Assembly (NCBI GenBank): GCA_018823885.1
Contig: JAHJHG010000005.1
Span: forward strand, 1 to 56,858
Direction: 5' to 3'
DNA length: 56,858 bases
DNA from: Patescibacteria group bacterium
GTDB taxonomy: Bacteria; Patescibacteriota; Microgenomatia; UBA8517
Shown piece after piece: positions 26,479 to 35,894 of the stretch. Each line of letters starts with the position of its first letter. The first letter of the stretch is position 1. Made by a program: the position numbers and the translations under genes. Below the pieces are notes generated by a model. That model was not told the origin of the DNA and ran no database searches. It saw only the letters and a list, made by a program, of their open reading frames with translations.

Positions 26479-27556
26479 GTTTTGAGATATTTAAAAGTAT
26501 ACCAGTTGCAAGAAGCGTCATCGTCAAAGCAGAACCCCCATAGCTAAAGAAGGGAAGCGGCACACCAGTTAACGGAACTAGAGCAACCATAGATCCAATA
26601 TTTAAAAAGATTTGGGCACCTATCCAAACTATTATGCCTGTGGCCAACACCTTCGAAAACTTATCAGGCGCACCCGTTGCAATCTTTAAGCCACGGAATA
26701 CAAATACCAGGAAAAGAGCTATCAAAACAACACCTCCAATAAAGCCTACTTCTTCAGCAATGACGGCAAAAATTGAATCGGTCGCCGCTTCCGGCAAGAA
26801 AAGAAATTTTTGTCTGGACTGTCCTAGGCCTACGCCAAATATTCCTCCTGAGCCCAAAGCAAGAAGAATTTGTCTTATATGATAAGATTTTCCCAGTGGG
26901 TCTTTTGATTGCTGAAAAAAAGTCATTAATCTATCTCGCCGGTAGCCAGATGTCATGATTAATATAAAGCTGGCAAGAGCCCCTGTTACTAACGCACCGG
27001 TAAAATGTAGCAAGTTAACTCCCGCTACAAAAACTTGAGCCATTCCTGCTGCGGCTACCACCAGGGTTGTTCCTAAATCGGGTTGAAACATAATAAGTCC
27101 GGCTACAATTGCGATTGGCAAAAAATACGAGAGAGATCCTTTTTCACTCGCAGCTACCTTAGCAATATAGATAGATAAGGCCAGCTTGACAAACTCCGAG
27201 GGTTGAAAAGAGACTGATCCAAGAATAATCCACCTTCTTGCACCCATAACTTTTACTCCTATACCCGGTATCAGAACAAGTATTAAAAGCAATATGCTGG
27301 CAATGAAAAGAGGCGTAGCGATCTTTTCCCAAAAAGAATAGCGAATTTTAGAGGTAACCAATAAAGCACCAAGACCAATTAATCCCCACACTGCCTGTTG
27401 TTTGACGTAGTAGAACCTATCAGAAAAATTACTCAAGGCTGCCGGTGAAGAAGCGTCGGCGACAACTATTAGCCCCAAAGCCGTCAAAACAAGGGTTAAT
27501 ATAAAAAGTTTCCTATCAGCCACATTGTTTTGTTTTTTAAGTTTCAGTTTTTGCAC
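26441..27556 (-). CDS. ftsW: Cell division SEDS protein FtsW
   Basis: GARRWI..G..SFQPSEF, QPDLGT, ALGSGGIFGVGLGQSRQK..FLPEA.TDSIF, FFSYGGS. Confidence 0.95.
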   Translation of the reverse strand: MQKLKLKKQNNVADRKLFILTLVLTALGLIVVADASSPAALSNFSDRFYYVKQQAVWGLIGLGALLVTSKIRYSFWEKIATPLFIASILLLILVLIPGIGVKVMGARRWIILGSVSFQPSEFVKLALSIYIAKVAASEKGSLSYFLPIAIVAGLIMFQPDLGTTLVVAAAGMAQVFVAGVNLLHFTGALVTGALASFILIMTSGYRRDRLMTFFQQSKDPLGKSYHIRQILLALGSGGIFGVGLGQSRQKFLFLPEAATDSIFAVIAEEVGFIGGVVLIALFLVFVFRGLKIATGAPDKFSKVLATGIIVWIGAQIFLNIGSMVALVPLTGVPLPFFSYGGSALTMTLLATGILLNISKHENKQKTRQRKR

Positions 27557-27568
27557 AAAGAGAAGTTT

Positions 27569-28624
27569 TTAAATCGTTGCCAGCCATAAACCAAAGATTG
27601 CAAGCATTATTCCAGCGAGCCATGCACGCATTACTATTTTCGGTTCCTCCCAACCTTGAGCCAAAAATGTATGGTGAATTGGGGCAAGTGGGAAAATAGG
27701 TTTATTAAGAAACTTCCAACCTAAAATCTGAACCGCTGAGGAAACAATCTCAATAAGAAATATCGCTCCGATAATCAAAAGAGCAAAGACACTTCCAGTT
27801 ACAAGTCCTATTACGGCTATCGTAGCACCAAAAGATAAGGCGCCAGCGTCTCCCAGGAAAATTCTTGCAGGCCAAACATTGAAATATAGAAAAGCCATCA
27901 AAGATCCTAACCATATGGTTATAAACAAGGAAAGAGGTACATCTAAGCTTGCTGCAGCAAGAGTGCCAAAGGCAATAAGAAATATCATTAGCAGTCCACT
28001 AGCAAGCCCGTCTAGCCCATCTGTAATATTGTAGGCGTTGGTAAAAGTAACAATAAGGGTGGCCGCGAATGGAACATACCAAAAACCAAGATCCAGTGTT
28101 TTATTAAATAATGGAATGTGAAGAATATGAATACCTAACTTATTATAAAGAAAGTAACCCACGAAAATAGCCAAAATCCATTGAGCTATAAATTTTTGCT
28201 TACGAGTTATACCAAACCACATACCCAACCTTCCCTTTCTGGGCTTACCGAACATCTTGACTATATCATCTGTTAAACCTAACAAGCCAAATGAAAGGAA
28301 GGTGAAAAATACCACAAACAATTCATCACGTAAACCAAATGAGCTTTGTATATAAACCCCCATATAAGTAATAATGGGAAATATTGCAGCAAAAAGAGCC
28401 GTAACTACGGCGATTATCAATATTCCGCCACCAACAGGCGTTCCTGCTTTGCCATCATGTAGCCTATCGAAAAGAGAAGTTTTCCCATTTTTTGAAGCCT
28501 GTTTGCGTCTTGTCAGTTTTAGCCTATAAAGAAGATCGATAAAGGGAACAACCAAAACACTTGTAATCAAGAAGGAGAAAATTATAAGTCCTAAAGCTAA
28601 GGGCAAGGTGCTTGATGTACTCAT
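27569..28624 (-). CDS. mraY: Phospho-N-acetylmuramoyl-pentapeptide transferase (start moved to ATG 28624)
   Basis: K.GTP.GGG, GL.DD..K, NAYNITDGLDGL, FLGDAGAL, APIHHTF...GW.E.KIV. Confidence 0.95.
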   Translation of the reverse strand: MSTSSTLPLALGLIIFSFLITSVLVVPFIDLLYRLKLTRRKQASKNGKTSLFDRLHDGKAGTPVGGGILIIAVVTALFAAIFPIITYMGVYIQSSFGLRDELFVVFFTFLSFGLLGLTDDIVKMFGKPRKGRLGMWFGITRKQKFIAQWILAIFVGYFLYNKLGIHILHIPLFNKTLDLGFWYVPFAATLIVTFTNAYNITDGLDGLASGLLMIFLIAFGTLAAASLDVPLSLFITIWLGSLMAFLYFNVWPARIFLGDAGALSFGATIAVIGLVTGSVFALLIIGAIFLIEIVSSAVQILGWKFLNKPIFPLAPIHHTFLAQGWEEPKIVMRAWLAGIMLAIFGLWLATI

Positions 28625-28646
28625 ATTAAGGGATAAACCCCCTCTG

Positions 28647-28675
28647 ATTATAAAACACAGGCTCAACTAGAGCAA
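28647..28675 (-). promoter_or_regulatory. Internal promoter upstream of mraY (TTGCTC-N17-TATAAT)
   Basis: -10 at 28647-28652, -35 at 28670-28675, in the intergenic gap after murF. Confidence 0.55.
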
Positions 28676-28723
28676 GGCGTGAAAATTACAATATTTATTA
28701 AGGATGTCGTTATCGCCTAATTA

Positions 28724-29986
28724 TTATTTTGTTAATCTCTCTACAATTTCTTCCATGGCGAGTGATCTGGAGCCCTTAATTAGTATTATGTCTTTCGCTT
28801 TTATCGTTGCTGTCATTTTTGTCAAAAGTTCTGTCTTGTCTTTTGCTAGATAAGTACATTCTTTTCCTAATCCTGCCTTTCGGGCTTCATCAACTACATA
28901 ACGCGTTGCTGATCCCAAGGTAATAATGCAATCAACACCTTCTTTAACAGCAAATTTGCCAACCTCTCTGTGACCCTCTTCTTCATACCTCCCTAATTCT
29001 TTCATCTCACCAAGAACTAATATTTTTCGACGTTTCTTGCCAATACTGGACATTAGACGTATTGCCTCTCTCACGGCAATTGGATTTGCATTGTATGTAT
29101 CATCAATCACGATCGTATCGTTTTTTAATCTTGAAGGAGTCATTCTGTGAGGTTGCGCTTTTATTTTCTCTAGCCCTTTCTTAATTTGTTTGGTGTTTAG
29201 ACCATTAATGTGCCCCACTGCTGCTGCGGCTAGGGCCAATGAAACAAACTGCTGTCCCAAAAGAGGAAGGACTATCTCCTGCATTTCATTTCCGGTTTCC
29301 AAAATAAATTTCGTTTTAAAATCTTTTGTAATACTTATATTTTTTCCTCTTATTTGCGCTCGTGAGTCTAATCCATACCAAACAATTTCTGCTTTTGTTG
29401 TATCTTTTAATTTAGCCGATTGGGGATCGTCAATATTCAAAACTGCACACCCATTTTTCGGCAAAGATTTAATTAATTTGCCTTTTTCCTTTACAACATT
29501 ATCCAGACTTCCCAAAAACTCTGTGTGTGTCCAGTAGATAGTAGTTATTACTCCTACCTTGGGTTGTACCAACCAAAGGTAATAATCCATTTCGCCGAGA
29601 AATTCTATTCCCATTTCTAAAACAAGTTTCTTGGTTCTTGAACCAGTAGACAAAACTGTAGCAGGAATATTATAAATAGGGTCTATATTTCCAAAGGTCC
29701 AGGCAGTTGTGTATTTTTGTAAAAGTACTGAAGCTATCATGTTCTTTGTTGTCGTCTTGCCCACACTGCCAGCAACTCCAATAATTTCGCATCCTGATTT
29801 GATAAGCAACTTAGAATATTCATGAGCCAAATGTCTTTTAATAGGATGGATGATCCACCTACCTAAGTACAAACGCATCGTTGTAAAAAGTCCTGAAGAC
29901 TTTTTCCCCGATGTTATAAATACGTGCTCCTTAGGAAGATGCGGTGCAACCCACCATTGTACAATTGGATATATTTTATTGCCCAT
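28724..29986 (-). CDS. murF: UDP-MurNAc-tripeptide--D-Ala-D-Ala ligase (start moved to ATG 29986, overlapping the upstream stop)
   Basis: GVAGSVGKTTTK P-loop, VLEMG, H.EFLGS, DDTYNANP, LVLGEMKELG, IKGSRSL.ME. Confidence 0.92.
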   Translation of the reverse strand: MGNKIYPIVQWWVAPHLPKEHVFITSGKKSSGLFTTMRLYLGRWIIHPIKRHLAHEYSKLLIKSGCEIIGVAGSVGKTTTKNMIASVLLQKYTTAWTFGNIDPIYNIPATVLSTGSRTKKLVLEMGIEFLGEMDYYLWLVQPKVGVITTIYWTHTEFLGSLDNVVKEKGKLIKSLPKNGCAVLNIDDPQSAKLKDTTKAEIVWYGLDSRAQIRGKNISITKDFKTKFILETGNEMQEIVLPLLGQQFVSLALAAAAVGHINGLNTKQIKKGLEKIKAQPHRMTPSRLKNDTIVIDDTYNANPIAVREAIRLMSSIGKKRRKILVLGEMKELGRYEEEGHREVGKFAVKEGVDCIITLGSATRYVVDEARKAGLGKECTYLAKDKTELLTKMTATIKAKDIILIKGSRSLAMEEIVERLTK

Positions 29987-30647
29987 GATTAAGAACCGTT
30001 GGCTTGGCACATACGTGATAACAAGAATCATATTCGAGAACTGCTTCATCCACAACTTTATAGCTCTTTTCCCAAATTACCTGACATTTTCCTTCTTTCT
30101 CTAACTCCTCAAGCACTTCCTTTAAAATTAATATGTACCTTTCATCAAATATTCCATCACCCCTTTTAACTGAAACTCTTTCGCTACCCTTATAGTAGCC
30201 ATTGGGGTCAAAATCAATAGCTGCACCAGCTTGATGCGCACTTCTTGTGGAAGCATTTGCCCCATTTCTCAATAACTCTTCTTGTAGCTTTCGAGAGCGA
30301 TATAGTGAGGTAACCGAAAGAAAAATAACGTCGTGAGTAGGAATATTAATTAATTTATCTTTCCATTTTTGACCGACTAATCCCAGAAGGTCTAAAGCTT
30401 GGGAATTTAATAATTTTGGTTCCTTATTGTTTCTTAAGGTCATAATCAATCGATATCCTGTTCCTTCTTGGGGTACTTCTTTTAATATCCCTTTTTGTAA
30501 AGCTTCTGGCACATCCTCTATCAATCTATCTTCCCACCACGACAACTCATCTCTGCATTTCTCTTGAACTCTTAGCCGCTCATCTTTTCGTAGCCCGTCA
30601 AGTTCTATGTTTATATTGGGAGTGCTTCGTTGTATTTCTGTATCCAT
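29976..30647 (-). CDS. DUF5715-like / peptidase M15-clan Zn-peptidase-like protein
   Basis: VTSLYRS...NGANA..RSAHQAGAAIDF...CYHV fits the S-x-H-x6-D...H Zn-ligand pattern of M15-type enzymes; no signal peptide. Confidence 0.7.
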   Translation of the reverse strand: MDTEIQRSTPNINIELDGLRKDERLRVQEKCRDELSWWEDRLIEDVPEALQKGILKEVPQEGTGYRLIMTLRNNKEPKLLNSQALDLLGLVGQKWKDKLINIPTHDVIFLSVTSLYRSRKLQEELLRNGANASTRSAHQAGAAIDFDPNGYYKGSERVSVKRGDGIFDERYILILKEVLEELEKEGKCQVIWEKSYKVVDEAVLEYDSCYHVCAKPTVLNHGQ

Positions 30648-30651
30648 ATGG

Positions 30652-31356
30652 TTATTTTTTCTTCAACGAAATAATTCTGCGAGTCGAAAGATTCTTAAAA
30701 TCATTTTTACTAATATACTTACCCTCACCCGCATCCTCAAAATCATTTGAGTCATGAATCCAAAAACCACTAAGTTCTTTTTTACTATTCATTTTAAATC
30801 CGTACATTAAAAGAAAGTGTCCTCCTGTTAAACTCTCTGTCGAGGCCAAAACATATGACCCTTTTGAAATTATAAGTGCAATTTCTGAAGCTGGTACGAA
30901 TTTCTTTAACTCCGCTTTCAGTTTATATTTCTCTGCTAATTTTGCAATACTTTTGTGAAACCAGCCAGTATCTATTTTTGTATCATACCCTCCTAACTCA
31001 TAACCTTCTTTTATCAATTCTATTGTCTTGTGGTCGAAACTATTTCCATGAACGGTTTTGAGAACCATCTGTAAGCCAACGATACCACATGCTCTCCAGG
31101 CCCAATAACTGAATTCTTTTAAATCTTTTGTTCCGAATCGATACGCCGCATCTTTATCCTTTATTGCACCATAAAAACCATCAATCGATGATTTTTTGGC
31201 ACTTGCTAGTTGGCTTATATAAAATGGCTTCTTGTGAACAAAATAGCTCCCAACCTCTAAAGACTTTAGTTTTCGAGCCACAACTTGTTCACGAACTTCA
31301 GCCACTCTCTTTCCCAATGCTTCGTAAAGTAAACTTTTTATATCCTGTCGTTTCAT
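30652..31356 (-). CDS. Papain-like cysteine peptidase (C39-like)
   Basis: Catalytic-triad-like pattern RACGIVGLQM (Cys), GGHFLLMYG (His), WIHDS (Asp); no signal peptide. Confidence 0.75.
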   Translation of the reverse strand: MKRQDIKSLLYEALGKRVAEVREQVVARKLKSLEVGSYFVHKKPFYISQLASAKKSSIDGFYGAIKDKDAAYRFGTKDLKEFSYWAWRACGIVGLQMVLKTVHGNSFDHKTIELIKEGYELGGYDTKIDTGWFHKSIAKLAEKYKLKAELKKFVPASEIALIISKGSYVLASTESLTGGHFLLMYGFKMNSKKELSGFWIHDSNDFEDAGEGKYISKNDFKNLSTRRIISLKKK

Positions 31357-32573
31357 TAATCTAAATTATCTGTCAATTTTCTAGCTTTACCCATTAAAGC
31401 AAAGAGAACAGCTTCCCGGTCAGACCAAGGATACTCCTTTCCATTATAAGCCATACTTTTTTCGTGTCCCTTACCACATATAACAACCGTGTCTCCTCTT
31501 CTTGCCGTTTTTTCTATAGAAAGCAATATTGCCTTGCCACGTTCTGGTTCTTTAATAATTTTGCTCCTTTTTTGTTTACTTATATCATCAGTACCATTAA
31601 TAATTTGCTCTATTATGTCGTTTATGTTTTCATTTCGAGGATCCTCGGCAGTAATAATAGAAATATCAGCTAGTCTAGCAGCAATCTTTCCCATTAAGTA
31701 CCTTTTCTCAATATCCCGTTCGCCGGCACAACCAAAAACAACAATTAATTTCGAATTGCCCTTTTTCCTATTCAGGGTCTCTAATACATTTTCTAAAGCA
31801 TTTGGTGTGTGAGCAAAATCAATATATATTTTAATTCCTTTCTTGTTTTTTATTTCTTCCATTCGTCCAGGAATACCAGAAAAATCCTTTATTCCTTTAA
31901 TAATTCTCTCGTTGTCTATATTTAACTCTTTGGCTGCTAAAATTGAGGCCGTTGCATTAAGCCTGTTGTAATTTTCAGCAAATTTATTTCTAATTGCCTT
32001 ACCTAAGTCTTTTTTAAGAGTTTTTTCACTGTATGAAACGACTTTTGTCCCCGAATTAAGTATTTTTTTAATATGTATATATGAAGAATCACTCTTATTG
32101 AGAATCGCTACATCTACGTTTCTAAACATTTTTGCCTTTGTGTTTAAATATTTCGCATATGTTTTATGATAATCCAAATGTTCGTGGGTGATATTGGTAA
32201 GAACAGCAATGAAAACGTTTGTTCCTAATAACCGGTGTTGATCTAAGCCATGTGACGTTGCTTCTAAAACTAGATATTTATACCCTTCGTCTGCAATTTT
32301 TTTTATCAATTTTTGTAAATGCCATGAGTCGGGGGTGGTTACATGCAAACCGGTATCAATTTCTTTTTCTCCAACATAAGCAGCCACCGTACTCACGAGA
32401 GCAACCTTCTTTTTAGCCGCTAGCAATAAATAATAAATCAATGTGGAAGTTGTTGTTTTTCCGTCTGTGCCAGTAACCCCAATCACTTTCAGCTTTCTTG
32501 CTGGATATCGGAAATATATAATCGCCAACACTGCCTTCAGAAAATGAAGTTTATTCTTTATAAAAGGTATCAC
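31356..32573 (-). CDS. murE: UDP-MurNAc-dipeptide--diamino acid ligase
   Basis: GVTGTDGKTTT, TTPD, LEATSHGLDQ.R, NITHEHLDYH, GRME, DFAHTP, FGCAGERD..KR, AEDPR, GKGHE. Confidence 0.95.
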   Translation of the reverse strand: MIPFIKNKLHFLKAVLAIIYFRYPARKLKVIGVTGTDGKTTTSTLIYYLLLAAKKKVALVSTVAAYVGEKEIDTGLHVTTPDSWHLQKLIKKIADEGYKYLVLEATSHGLDQHRLLGTNVFIAVLTNITHEHLDYHKTYAKYLNTKAKMFRNVDVAILNKSDSSYIHIKKILNSGTKVVSYSEKTLKKDLGKAIRNKFAENYNRLNATASILAAKELNIDNERIIKGIKDFSGIPGRMEEIKNKKGIKIYIDFAHTPNALENVLETLNRKKGNSKLIVVFGCAGERDIEKRYLMGKIAARLADISIITAEDPRNENINDIIEQIINGTDDISKQKRSKIIKEPERGKAILLSIEKTARRGDTVVICGKGHEKSMAYNGKEYPWSDREAVLFALMGKARKLTDNLD

Positions 32574-32629
32574 CTATGTATTTTACCAGATTTGAATTCT
32601 TTTTAGGCTATCCTGTATAATCGTTCCAT

Positions 32630-32911
32630 ATGTCAGCCGAAATGAAGTTTAATGGTATTCCTGAGAAATTTCAGCCACTTTTTACTGGCTCCGCCAGAGA
32701 TGTATTATTTTTCGCTAATAATATGATTTCTGCTGCTTCCGAAGACGAACAAATAATTCTTTTAGAAGACGATATATTTTGTGGAGCTGTAAGTAGTGCC
32801 TTGCATAACCTGGACCAGAGAAGTCCAGAGGCTAGGGTAGAAATCACAGCTTCATTTCACAAAAGGGTTCAGCCTTTTGCATTTAAAACATTTATTGGAC
32901 GCTCCAATTAA
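32630..32911 (+). CDS. Small hypothetical protein, divergent from murE
   Basis: 93 aa ORF filling the ftsI-murE gap; TATAAT 8 nt before the ATG. Confidence 0.65.
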   Translation: MSAEMKFNGIPEKFQPLFTGSARDVLFFANNMISAASEDEQIILLEDDIFCGAVSSALHNLDQRSPEARVEITASFHKRVQPFAFKTFIGRSN

Positions 32912-32919
32912 CGCCCCTC

Positions 32920-34632
32920 TTATTTTGTAGGTTGGATTCCGAAGTATATAAAAAGATCTTTCGCGACATTGTACCAAAGAGGAGCCGCTGTTTCCGACGC
33001 CCAAGGAGAACTGGAAGGTTCTCTTAAGGTTATCAGCATAACAAAGTCTGGATCATCTGCGGGTGCGAAACCGACGAAACTGGCTATTGTTCTTTCTTCA
33101 TCATAATGTCCAGCAATAGGAATCTGAGCTGTCCCTGTCTTTCCAGCGACATTAAATCCCCTAAGATGAGTCCATTTTGATTCTCCATTCTTCGCGGCTT
33201 CAACCATCATTGCGGTTACCTCATTGGCTGTTTTGGCAGAAATCACTCTTTCGTCAATTTCAGGTTTAATATCTTCTCCCCAAGTTTCTCCCAATATCCT
33301 GTCAACAACTTGCGGTGTTACGAGGATACCGTCGTTTGCAATTGCCCCAACAGCACGAACCATTTGGATAGGAGTAGTCACTACTCCCTGCCCAAAGGAA
33401 GTTGTCGCTAAATCAACTATGTTCCACGTTCCTTTTTCTCTTAATTTCGGTTCTATTTCTCCTTGGAGATCGACGTTTGTGGCCTTTCCTATACCGAAAG
33501 CGTCCAAATAATCATAAAGCGTGTCGGCACCTGTCTTTTGACCTACATAGGACATCCCTACGTTATCGGAGTGAACAATAACGTCAAGCATGGTTTGGTC
33601 GGGAGTATATTCATTGTTCCATGTTTTAATAAAATACTTATCTACTTTCAAGGGTCCGTCGCAAATTTCACACTTTGTATCGGGCTCCACAGCATCTGAA
33701 TCAAGTCCCGCCGCCATTACCAAAACTTTAAAAATCGATCCTGGCTCAAAAGAATCAGAGACAATCGGATTTTTGAAAAAAGTATCTCCAAAATCGGAAT
33801 AGCTTGCGGGATCGTAAGAAGGATAGGCCGACATTGCCAAAACCGCACCATTTTTTGGATTCATGACAACAGCTGTTCCTCCCACGGCTCCGTATTTTTC
33901 AATTCCCTCAGAAAGTTTTTCATCCAATAGAAGCTGGATCGTTTTATCGATGTGTGTTAATAAATCAACACCAGCGATAGCCGTTACTTCCGTCATATCT
34001 CCAATCCCAATCGGCAATCCCCTAGCATCCCTTTCCCTTCCTAAAAAACCAGGCTTGCCTGAAAGTGGAGCATTGTAATAACCCTCCAAACCAAAGTAGC
34101 CAATATCTTCTCCTTGAGCATCTTTTCCAACAAATCCTAACAAATGGGCGGCACTTGAGGCTTCAGGGTACATCCTTGTTTCTTGTTGTTCAAAACCTAT
34201 TCCGGCTATTCCCAGCGCTTCAATATTTCGCTTAACTTCTGTACTAATTTTGTGTTTTATGGGAATCCAAACAATTTCCTCTTTCGTTAAAAGGGAATAT
34301 ATTCTTTCAACTTCCAGTAAAACATCTGTTCTTTCTGATTCTTCCTCAAGAAAAAACGGAGCTAGCTTGTCGGCAATTTTTCTGGGGTTTTCTTTTATGT
34401 CCGGCAAAGAAGCATAAACTAACCATGCCTCCCCTCTCGCCGCAAGCCATGTTGAGTCACTTGCTAATATATTGCCTCTGGGAGCACCAATATTTTTTCC
34501 TGACTGATATTGGTCCCTAGCTTGAGCCGACAAGTCTTTACCCCTAATAATCTGCCAAAAAAATAATCTAGCCAAAAGAACAACGAAGATAATCAAAAAA
34601 AATGCGGCTACCAGCTTTAAGCGCGTCTGCAT
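32920..34632 (-). CDS. ftsI: Class B penicillin-binding protein (FtsI/PBP3-like)
   Basis: RG.I, R.YP, G.FGLE; transpeptidase motifs SIFK, SDN, KTG. Confidence 0.92.
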   Translation of the reverse strand: MQTRLKLVAAFFLIIFVVLLARLFFWQIIRGKDLSAQARDQYQSGKNIGAPRGNILASDSTWLAARGEAWLVYASLPDIKENPRKIADKLAPFFLEEESERTDVLLEVERIYSLLTKEEIVWIPIKHKISTEVKRNIEALGIAGIGFEQQETRMYPEASSAAHLLGFVGKDAQGEDIGYFGLEGYYNAPLSGKPGFLGRERDARGLPIGIGDMTEVTAIAGVDLLTHIDKTIQLLLDEKLSEGIEKYGAVGGTAVVMNPKNGAVLAMSAYPSYDPASYSDFGDTFFKNPIVSDSFEPGSIFKVLVMAAGLDSDAVEPDTKCEICDGPLKVDKYFIKTWNNEYTPDQTMLDVIVHSDNVGMSYVGQKTGADTLYDYLDAFGIGKATNVDLQGEIEPKLREKGTWNIVDLATTSFGQGVVTTPIQMVRAVGAIANDGILVTPQVVDRILGETWGEDIKPEIDERVISAKTANEVTAMMVEAAKNGESKWTHLRGFNVAGKTGTAQIPIAGHYDEERTIASFVGFAPADDPDFVMLITLREPSSSPWASETAAPLWYNVAKDLFIYFGIQPTK

Positions 34633-34644
34633 GATTTGTCTTTG

Positions 34645-34971
34645 TCACGGAAGTTTTGCTACAGCTTCTTTTTCGCTAATATATATAACGTCAGAAGGCT
34701 TTATAAACCCTAACTGTTCAGCTTTTTCTCCCATTCCACTTAATGAAGATGAATTAATGAGCTGATTTGAATATTCCTGTTTTTCTTTATTTAGAGCTAT
34801 CTCTTCATTTTCAAGTTCCGCCAGGTGAGCCCCTAAAGTCGAAGCCTCTATTGCAAAAAATACTGTGGCAACGATAAACATCGCGAGTATCGAAAATAGA
34901 GCCATAGAAATATTAAATCCGGCAACTGTTTTTCTTTTATTAATTTGGTTTTCTCTCTTTTTGTTTTGCAT
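34645..34971 (-). CDS. ftsL: FtsL-like cell division protein
   Basis: Basic N-terminus, one TM, coiled coil, A.QLGF motif; between rsmH and ftsI. Confidence 0.7.
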   Translation of the reverse strand: MQNKKRENQINKRKTVAGFNISMALFSILAMFIVATVFFAIEASTLGAHLAELENEEIALNKEKQEYSNQLINSSSLSGMGEKAEQLGFIKPSDVIYISEKEAVAKLP

Positions 34972-34973
34972 AA

Positions 34974-35894
34974 TTATATTTTTTCAAGACACCTTAGTTT
35001 TGCACTTCTTGCGCGAGGATTTTTTGTAGTTTCTTCCCTTGCAGGTACTACTGGCTTTTTAGTTAGAACTTTTACTAGATTCTTGTTCCGCATCTCTCTG
35101 AAAAAATTCTTAACTAAAGCATCCTCTCCGGAATGAAAACTGATAACGACCAATCTTCCTTCCTTTTTTAACAACCCTAGTGCTTTTGGGAGTGCAATTT
35201 TCAGGTTTTCAAGCTCACTATTAACAGCCATTCGCAATGCCATAAAGGGTAGTGTGGCAGGGTTTAGTTTCCCTCCATCAACCCTTGCCCTACTAACAAT
35301 TGCCAAAAAGTCAGAGGTTTCTTTGATTGGTTTTTCTTTTCTACGAAAAACGACCTCTTTCGCTAATTTTCTAGCAACAGGCTGTATCATTACTGATTCA
35401 AATAGATCAATCAGTTGGTCCTCGCGTAAATTGTTTAATAAATCCGCAGCCGTCACGCCTTGCGTTTTAGTATCGATCCTCATATCTAGTGGCGCAGAAC
35501 CACTTTCAAATGAAAATCCACGCGTTTGAGATTTTAGGTGAATATTACTGACACCAAGATCAAAAAGAATGCCATCAACTTCTTTGACTTCCATTCTCTT
35601 TGCAATTTTGTCTATGTCCCTGAAATTTCCGTTTACTAACTTGAAGTGACCCTGAACTGAATCGTTCAGAGTAGGGCAGGCAATATTCAAGCGTTTTTCA
35701 GCAATTTCGAGCAACTCTTTATCAGCATCTATTCCTAATACATTTCCTCCGGCTTTTAATATTTCTAACGTGTGTCCAGCCGTTCCAAGGGTTGTATCTA
35801 TAAAGTAAGCTTGTTTTTTTAAAGGTACATCTAGACCCAAATAGTTAATTACCTCATGGGCCAGGACCGGCTCATGATATTCGCTATTTTTCAT
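34974..35894 (-). CDS. rsmH: 16S rRNA m4C1402 methyltransferase
   Basis: HEPVL, DTTLGTAGH, DGILFDLGVS, RGFSF...PLDMR, ALRMAVNSEL, ISFHSGED, NPRARSAKLR. Confidence 0.98.
   Translation of the reverse strand: MKNSEYHEPVLAHEVINYLGLDVPLKKQAYFIDTTLGTAGHTLEILKAGGNVLGIDADKELLEIAEKRLNIACPTLNDSVQGHFKLVNGNFRDIDKIAKRMEVKEVDGILFDLGVSNIHLKSQTRGFSFESGSAPLDMRIDTKTQGVTAADLLNNLREDQLIDLFESVMIQPVARKLAKEVVFRRKEKPIKETSDFLAIVSRARVDGGKLNPATLPFMALRMAVNSELENLKIALPKALGLLKKEGRLVVISFHSGEDALVKNFFREMRNKNLVKVLTKKPVVPAREETTKNPRARSAKLRCLEKI

Follow-up and report, generated by a model that had tools for sequence, protein, structure and literature searches.

The 56,858-nt window analyzed here is a contig of a Patescibacteria group bacterium (JAHJHG010000005.1, positions 1 to 56,858 of the forward strand; assembly GCA_018823885.1), and on its minus strand lies a division and cell wall (dcw) gene cluster in which murE, two open reading frames (ORFs) that we refer to as A and B, and murF are consecutive. 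A and B are predicted to be co-translated cytoplasmic peptidases, and our preferred reading, to which we give about an even chance, is that they process the stem peptide of peptidoglycan at the step catalyzed by the ligase MurF or adjacent to it, in a route that salvages wall precursors rather than synthesizing them de novo. This bears on the question of how the ultra-small, episymbiotic bacteria of the Candidate Phyla Radiation (CPR), or Patescibacteria, build a peptidoglycan wall with a minimal metabolism. The locus provides a concrete and testable set of genes, comprising two uncharacterized peptidase families that are tied to MurF and that include a Pfam domain of unknown function (DUF) without literature; the genomes that carry A and B include some that lack every known route to uridine diphosphate (UDP)-N-acetylmuramic acid (MurNAc)-dipeptide and sometimes every known route to D-Ala-D-Ala. 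New here are the partnership with MurF together with Ddl, the context of MurA to MurD loss, and the existence of fusion proteins. The labels G, L and P denote genomes, loci and representative proteins, respectively, and the genome of the window is G000.

The A-B module occupies the slot of the missing precursor genes

The cluster of the A-negative sister genome G038 has the order ftsI-murA-cofD-murE::glmU(N)-murC-murB-murD-ddl-alr-murF-mraY. The order in the window is ftsI-gap-murE-A-B-murF, with A-B in the slot that murC-murB-murD-ddl-alr fills in the sisters. The A-positive genome G165 reads ftsI-murA(fragments)-murB(fragment)-murE-x-x-A-B-murF, and A-B again takes the murC-murB-murD-ddl-alr slot. 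Alongside A-B in this genome (L055 13061-15394), murA is split into pieces of 348 and 95 residues and murB is shortened to 285 residues; these pieces look like pseudogenes caught during loss of the pathway. Sister genomes also have murA, and more, in the interval between ftsI and murE, and a tblastn search of the corresponding gap in the window with G038 queries found no remnant of MurA, MurB, MurC, MurD or the N-terminal domain of MurE.

The genome of the window is 98% complete and contains only two Mur ligases. No MurA, Ddl or MurI was found in it, and tblastn searches with same-family references detected none of MurA, MurB, MurC, MurD, Ddl and Alr. MurF, MraY, MurG, FtsW and penicillin-binding proteins (PBPs) are retained.

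The coordinates bear out the tight junctions that the first-pass annotation of this DNA had described. The stop codon of murE overlaps the start of A (TAATG at 31358-31354), 4 nt lie between the stop of A and the start of B (TAAccatATG), and B ends 11 nt within murF, given a murF ATG at 29986; murF could also begin earlier, at a TTG at 30055. Because the genes overlap, they are presumably co-transcribed; the run search gave no RNA evidence, the sequence being present in DNA runs only. Over 27500-35000 the layout is collinear in contigs assembled from three independent groundwater metagenomes; these cross PBP-gap-murE-A-B-murF-mraY with no joints and rule out mis-assembly as the origin of the short cluster. 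One groundwater run carries a natural variant at window position 30458 (C>T on the plus strand), which changes Gly64 of B to Arg and is the same as in the cluster representative P0018.

When compared with locus L148, the ratio of nonsynonymous to synonymous substitution (dN/dS) was 0.12 for MurE, 0.14 for A, 0.17-0.18 for B, 0.08-0.12 for MurF and 0.06 for MraY; all five of these cluster genes are under purifying selection. The retained MurE is unusual, as its match to TIGR01085 (364 bits versus a cut-off of 257) begins only at profile position 69 and it aligns to the MurE of G038 from residue 92 onward only. It therefore departs from the three-domain MurE architecture in having no N-terminal UDP-binding domain 1. 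This domain is also missing in G165, G063 and L148, and is kept in the A-negative sisters G038, G121 and G243 as well as in L014, L017 and L147. Since the dN/dS of the domain-1-less MurE is low (0.12), the gene is not decaying, and the protein should be of interest to Mur-ligase enzymology. It carries an EDPR motif, which we take to suggest a ligase of the diaminopimelic acid (DAP) type. The murF product scores 309.5 bits against TIGR01143, in excess of the cut-off. In G038 (L053 7795-9855), and also in G243 (L059), MurE and the N-terminal, uridylyltransferase part of GlmU form one fusion protein of 686 residues; the genome of the window has neither this fusion nor a clear GlmU, and only a generic nucleoside triphosphate (NTP)-transferase is encoded, on contig C9.

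A and B are predicted to be cytoplasmic peptidases of two unrelated folds

From the letters of the DNA, A had been proposed to be a C39-like cysteine peptidase and B an M15/DUF5715-like zinc peptidase, both with plausible catalytic residues and neither with a signal peptide or transmembrane (TM) segment. Pfam, structure prediction and fold matches all agree with these identities, although A falls just under the Pfam threshold. A scores 23.4 bits (E = 9.5e-5) against PF13529, Peptidase_C39_2, and so narrowly misses the gathering score of 24. Several A homologues have a precomputed PF13529 match, and the relatives P0083, P0105 and P0167 reach 38-43 bits; A thus appears to be a borderline, divergent member of this family. 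In its AlphaFold model, which was built from a 19-sequence alignment (pLDDT 93), a papain core of ~150 residues follows a family-specific first ~85 residues. The best fold matches in the PDB found with Foldseek are the C39 peptidase domains of ComA and PCAT1 (E ~1e-5, probability 1.0) and of 3erv (probability 1.0). They are followed by other papain-like enzymes, among them the pseudomurein endoisopeptidase PeiR and Alr0975, both with probability 1.0, and a phytochelatin-synthase-like protein. Of 127 full-length representatives, all 127 have Cys90, 123 have His180 and 110 have Asp or Asn as the third residue. On the predicted structure, this Cys-His-Asp/Asn triad and the fold matches place A in the papain-like/C39 fold (clan CA), in which an N-terminal helix bears the catalytic Cys and beta-strands bear the His and the Asp/Asn.

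A sequence search of the PDB with the A profile gave no meaningful match, and an NlpC/P60 or CHAP identity of A received no support from Pfam or Foldseek. A C39 bacteriocin-leader peptidase (PF03412) would be fused or linked to an ABC exporter and would have a leader with a double-glycine motif as its substrate; at the mapped loci, no ABC transporter or leader-peptide gene was found beside A using Pfam labels and cell-wall reference matches, although no dedicated search was made. A shares with ComA, PCAT1 and Peptidase_C39_2 the order and spacing of Cys, His and Asp/Asn, and differs from ComA and PCAT1 in standing alone as a soluble protein with no ABC transporter, in the family-specific N-terminal region and in its cell-wall-ligase partners. 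A hydrophobic N-terminus or TM-like segment is absent from all A and B homologues examined. We therefore consider A a predicted cytoplasmic papain/C39-fold cysteine peptidase of an uncharacterized family. The A homologue in G063 (C1:270477-271133; L034/L057) has an in-frame TAG stop, and may be a pseudogene or have a shortened start.

B belongs to PF18979 (DUF5715), against which it scores 53.8 bits (E = 2.4e-14; cut-off 26.8), and 24 of the 26 B homologue clusters also match this profile; we found no mention of this family in the literature. Its match to M15_4 (18.8 bits) is under the cut-off, and the Pfam VanY profile gives no match. The B model (pLDDT 89.5) has a helical N-terminal extension of ~100 residues, and its fold matches are the M15 L-Ala-D-Glu peptidases LysECD7 and ChiX and also the RB49 peptidase; Ply500, LdcB/YodJ, VanY and VanXYc are weak profile matches. 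The motifs S-L-Y-R-x3-Q and S136-x-H138-x2-G-x-A-x-D145, together with His211, are invariant, and His138, Asp145 and His211 correspond by motif to the metal ligands of the M15/LAS zinc triad, H-x6-D...H. The E/D-x-x-H general-base motif of M15 enzymes is replaced by S/A-C-Y-H-V-C, in which the -3 residue is Ser or Ala. Cys188, Cys209 and Cys213 are conserved with few or no exceptions, and the invariant Glu193, on a neighboring strand, is a candidate base. B is thus a predicted cytoplasmic zinc peptidase of the LAS/M15 fold. Both proteins are intact, signal-less predicted hydrolase folds that have conserved active sites and are under purifying selection. We consider the locus real and beyond chance.

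MurF, usually with Ddl, is the constant partner of the module

Homologues are few, unnamed and nearly all from Patescibacteria. An exhaustive profile search gave 54 representative clusters at a threshold of E<1e-30, a number that rises to 311 at E<1e-10. At most independent loci, in Woesebacteria, Saccharibacteria and others, A or A-B adjoins murF, ddl or mraY (Table 1), and every Mur ligase that is linked to A or B is MurF or a divergent MurF-like protein. Two natural fusions were found: P0078 joins A to B, and P0167 joins a MurF-like ligase without its N-terminal domain to A. These fusions support a functional coupling of the encoded activities. The first-pass annotation had held that the absence of a conserved linkage to mur genes would speak against its proposal; the linkage recurs at most independent loci and in the fusions. 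It had also coupled the pair to both MurE and MurF. As judged from gene order, what stays constant across Patescibacteria is the pairing with MurF, usually accompanied by Ddl; MurE is not a conserved partner.

Table 1. Gene order around A and B at the loci compared
Locus	Arrangement
Window, L148, G165	murE-A-B-murF-mraY
L144 (Woesebacteria)	ftsI-A-B-murF-[42-aa ddl remnant]-mraY
L016 (Saccharibacteria)	A-B-murF-mraY
L006/L007	ftsI-A-ddl-alr-murF-mraY
L145	A-B-(alpha/beta-hydrolase)-MurF-like, ddl convergent
L015, L023	A-(alpha/beta-hydrolase)-MurF-like, ddl convergent
L018	A-B-ddl, convergent with MurF-like-(alpha/beta-hydrolase)
L008/L013 = G129	A-B-(alpha/beta-hydrolase), mraY divergent
L001	A-ddl, MurF-like convergent
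L002, L004, L010-L012	A remote from wall genes

In A-B-murF, L147 resembles L148 (80-88% identity) more than it does the window, whereas for the truncated MurE of L148 the nearer counterpart is that of the window. Read from these pairwise identities, the mismatch may be a sign that A-B-murF has moved as a block. The ddl remnant of L144 (8918-9046) encodes 42 residues of the Ddl N-terminal domain and indicates ddl decay. An alpha/beta-hydrolase (Abhydrolase_1, S33-like, 227-256 residues) recurs as a third partner in L008, L014, L015, L018, L022, L023, L058 and L145, and is absent from the genome of the window. The ORFs that follow A in L015, L021, L022 and L023 were considered as divergent forms of B and rejected, three being alpha/beta-hydrolases and one having no match. 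A His_Phos_1 histidine phosphatase occurs twice in the A/B-MurF-Ddl neighborhood, in L018 and L146.

Genomes with A and B have mostly lost MurA to MurD

Genomes that carry both A and B have mostly lost MurA to MurD, and often Ddl, Alr and MurI. In a class sample of 301 genomes, A is patchily distributed (15/301), and all five genomes with A and B have two or fewer Mur ligases, versus 27 of the 296 others (Fisher p = 1e-5, kinship ignored). Two or fewer ligases were counted in 32 of the 301 genomes overall. Within one genus, G002 and G063 have A-B with one and two ligases, respectively, versus four ligases in G085, which has no A-B. Ten further genomes with a clear A, from other lineages, have one ligase (G301, G303, G305, G307 and G311), two (G304 and G312) or three (G302, G306 and G313); G310 has five, and G308 has none, but its A match is weak (25% identity). 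The position of the ligase was compared in the five single-ligase genomes G301, G303, G305, G307 and G311, and in these it adjoins A, B or Ddl.

The complete genome of G002 has lost all mur genes between ftsI and mraY and kept A-B, and its sole ligase is a divergent MurF-like protein. MraY is kept in all A-B genomes checked (G000, G002, G063, G165, G129, G302, G303 and G305), and MurF, MurG, FtsW and PBPs are present in the clusters or genomes examined, with the exception of G002, where MurF is represented by the MurF-like protein only. G002 has MraY, MurG, FtsW and PBPs; G151 has MraY and no Mur-ligase match.

Comparison of gene content yielded 41 ORFs that are present in G000 and G002 and not in G038, including A, B, a PGA_cap (CapA-like) protein, a sortase and housekeeping genes. 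The PGA_cap membrane protein lies beside the divergent MurF-like ligase in G002 (641611-643911) and beside Ddl and a MurF-like protein in G063 (L058 4790-8802); in the genome of the window it is on contig C1 (139618-140508), and G038 does not have it. MurNAc salvage of the AmgK/MurU type was considered as a source of UDP-MurNAc here and rejected: G000, G002, G063 and G129 have no APH-family kinase, and the only candidate for the second step is the generic NTP-transferase noted above.

A proposed salvage route centered on MurF

In the route that we favor, the cell would take up host-derived wall precursors or muropeptides, and A and B would cut back the peptide by removing D-Ala from tetra- or pentapeptides. 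Where MurE is kept, they might also remove the residue at position 3. The domain-1-less MurE and MurF would then rebuild a donor-competent pentapeptide for MraY. Given the linkage and fusion to MurF and Ddl, the module may include an L,D-carboxypeptidase activity like that of LdcA or LdcB, which cleave tetrapeptides at the bond between position 3 and D-Ala4. The first-pass annotation had suggested that the pair either trims or proofreads UDP-MurNAc-peptides or remodels host-derived muropeptides. Remodeling of host-derived material finds strong circumstantial support in the missing MurA to MurD, Ddl, Alr and MurI and in the slot that the module occupies, and salvage is favored over proofreading.

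Among known systems, this logic matches that of Escherichia coli, where the S66 L,D-carboxypeptidase LdcA, Mpl and MurF act in succession: the recycled stem peptide is trimmed to a tripeptide in the cytoplasm, and MurF, with Ddl, restores D-Ala-D-Ala. The genetic tie of A and B to MurF and Ddl fits such a scheme. Unlike in E. coli, however, the peptidase families are papain/C39 and DUF5715/M15 rather than S66, the genome of the window has no Mpl or MurC-type ligase, and with no de novo synthesis the cell would depend on the route instead of using it as a supplement. We found nothing relevant in the literature on a salvage pathway in Mur-deficient CPR bacteria. If A and B do re-tailor host wall material, this would be the first described obligatory salvage pathway for peptidoglycan precursors; host dependence would then have an explanation in the cell wall itself, and both DUF5715 and a new branch of the C39-like peptidases would acquire functions.

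Several observations weigh against this reading. The closest relative of A (74% identity), at L147, lies with B in a complete murA-murE-murC-murB-murD...murF-ddl cluster, flanked by murD and murF. As A-B is found there inside a complete pathway, the module is not a simple replacement and pathway loss is not required for its presence; the module probably preceded the loss of de novo synthesis. The A-only genomes G259 and G310 have five ligases, the 27 other low-ligase genomes of the class sample have no A, and the association test takes no account of phylogeny. We found no known route for the supply or activation of the MurNAc core, an AmgK-like kinase being absent, and no kinase, uridylyltransferase or obvious muropeptide transporter is among the 41 ORFs named above, which were named by eye without a profile search. 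Ddl is missing in G000 and G165, which leaves the source of D-Ala-D-Ala for MurF unexplained, and G002 has A-B with only a divergent MurF-like ligase. The folds do not reveal the bond specificity of either enzyme. The nearest structures of B are L-Ala-D-Glu endopeptidases and its nearest sequences LD/DD-carboxypeptidases, and the usual E/D-x-x-H base is absent.

A bolder version of the salvage reading, which we think improbable, is an obligate "precursor piracy". Patescibacteria without MurA to MurD and AmgK would import host precursors or muropeptides, A and B would trim them, and the UDP-domain-less MurE and MurF would rebuild the peptide on a substrate that is possibly not UDP-linked. In its boldest form, A would be an ATP-independent transpeptidase that swaps or installs a C-terminal D-Ala-D-Ala or transfers a salvaged peptide. 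L,D-transpeptidases, sortases and phytochelatin synthase are all catalysts that proceed through a Cys acyl-enzyme.

Alternative functions for A and B

Among the alternatives, the one that survives best, though we consider it unlikely, is substrate supply: A and B would degrade imported host stem peptides to free meso-DAP for MurE, to D-Ala or D-Ala-D-Ala for MurF and to D-Glu, leaving the sugar-linked precursor untouched. MpaA, LdcA and YkfC, which act in the catabolic recycling of murein peptides, are the model for such a role. The genome of the window lacks Ddl, Alr and MurI, yet its DAP-type MurE and its MurF are kept under selection, and the peptidases are located between the two ligases that would consume their products; supply would also accommodate G002, in which A-B is retained without MurE. 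It leaves unexplained, however, where UDP-MurNAc-L-Ala-D-Glu would come from without MurA to MurD. The MurF::A fusion fits the channeling of a MurF substrate, but does so equally for a dipeptide and for a tripeptide precursor, and the A-negative sisters have Ddl and Alr, and some have MurI, such that supply would become relevant only after those losses. The Bacillus subtilis YkfA-YkfB-YkfC set, an LD-carboxypeptidase, an L-Ala-D/L-Glu epimerase and an NlpC/P60 gamma-D-Glu-DAP endopeptidase that together degrade murein peptides in the cytoplasm, resembles the module in bringing signal-less papain-superfamily and carboxypeptidase enzymes together in an operon. A is of the C39_2 rather than the NlpC/P60 type, there is no epimerase, and A-B lies within the biosynthetic dcw cluster, fused or linked to MurF. 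This embedding in dcw and the tie to MurF point to rebuilding rather than catabolism.

Editing appears somewhat less probable than supply. Here A, B or both would take off incorrect C-terminal residues that MurF or MurE had added, or would hydrolyze dipeptides that the cell does not want, much as PgeF edits MurC products or as VanX and VanXY, next to a Ddl-type ligase, reshape the pool of precursors. The hydrolase-ligase fusion MurF::A recalls editing domains, the combination of an M15 peptidase with Ddl and a MurF-like ligase resembles the layout of van clusters, and at L147 A-B stands alongside a complete pathway. Editing of precursors in the cytoplasm does exist, as shown by PgeF (YfiH), a peptidoglycan precursor editing amidase that acts on the products of MurC (PMC12280929). 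Like PgeF, A and B would be cytoplasmic hydrolases at a Mur-ligase step; they differ from it in fold and in target step, and their patchy occurrence, tied to pathway loss, contrasts with the wide conservation of PgeF.

B shares with VanX, VanY and VanXY (M15) and with LdcB the LAS/M15 fold, the SxHxxGxAxD and S-x-YR-xxxQ motifs and the final His, and VanX and VanXY are likewise cytoplasmic and stand beside a Ddl-type ligase. It differs from all of these in the replacement of E-x-x-H by S/A-C-Y-H-V-C with conserved cysteines, in its N-terminal helical extension and in having no resistance context. An editing role would not predict the co-occurrence of A-B with loss of MurA to MurD, Ddl and Alr, nor the retention of A-B in G002, whose only ligase is a divergent MurF-like protein, and presence in 15 of 301 genomes is unlike the distribution of a general fidelity factor.

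That A and B have an unrelated function and hitch-hike in the dcw cluster, as a protease for processing small peptides, a toxin/immunity-like pair or a general peptidase, is very improbable: leader-peptide C39 domains are the top fold matches of A and a papain-like toxin/immunity pair is also matched, some A genes lie far from mur genes beside copper-ATPase or FolD genes (L004, L010-L012) and some relatives have TPR fusions, but the mapped loci have no linked ABC transporter or leader-peptide gene (within the limits of the search described above), distantly related lineages repeatedly show the tie to MurF and Ddl, a fusion with a MurF-like ligase exists, and the fold of B is that of cell-wall peptidases.

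Other features of the dcw cluster

The remaining genes of the cluster are listed with the module in Table 2.

Table 2. Coordinates of the dcw cluster in the window
Feature	Coordinates	Strand	Length	Remarks
mraZ	36321-35884	-		dcw cluster
rsmH	35894-34974	-		dcw cluster
ftsL	34971-34645	-		dcw cluster
ftsI-type PBP	34632-32920	-		Upstream boundary of remodeled segment (mraZ-rsmH-ftsL-ftsI)
ftsI-murE interval	32574-32919		346 nt	
murE	32573-31356	-	405 aa	TIGR01085
ORF A	31356-30652	-	234 aa	Predicted papain/C39 fold
ORF B	30647-29976	-	223 aa	Pfam DUF5715, predicted LAS/M15 fold
murF	29986-28724	-		TIGR01143
mraY	28666-27569	-		Downstream consumer of finished precursor
ftsW	27556-26441	-		
murG	26478-25357	-		
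ftsQ-like, ftsA, ftsZ	Beyond murG, downstream	-		

Within the interval between ftsI and murE, an ORF of 93 residues (32630-32911, plus strand) runs opposite to the dcw operon, in antisense. Pfam gives no match to this ORF, which is 58% identical, without gaps, to one at the same position of L148; it may be a genuine small gene, or it may only reflect conservation of the opposite strand.

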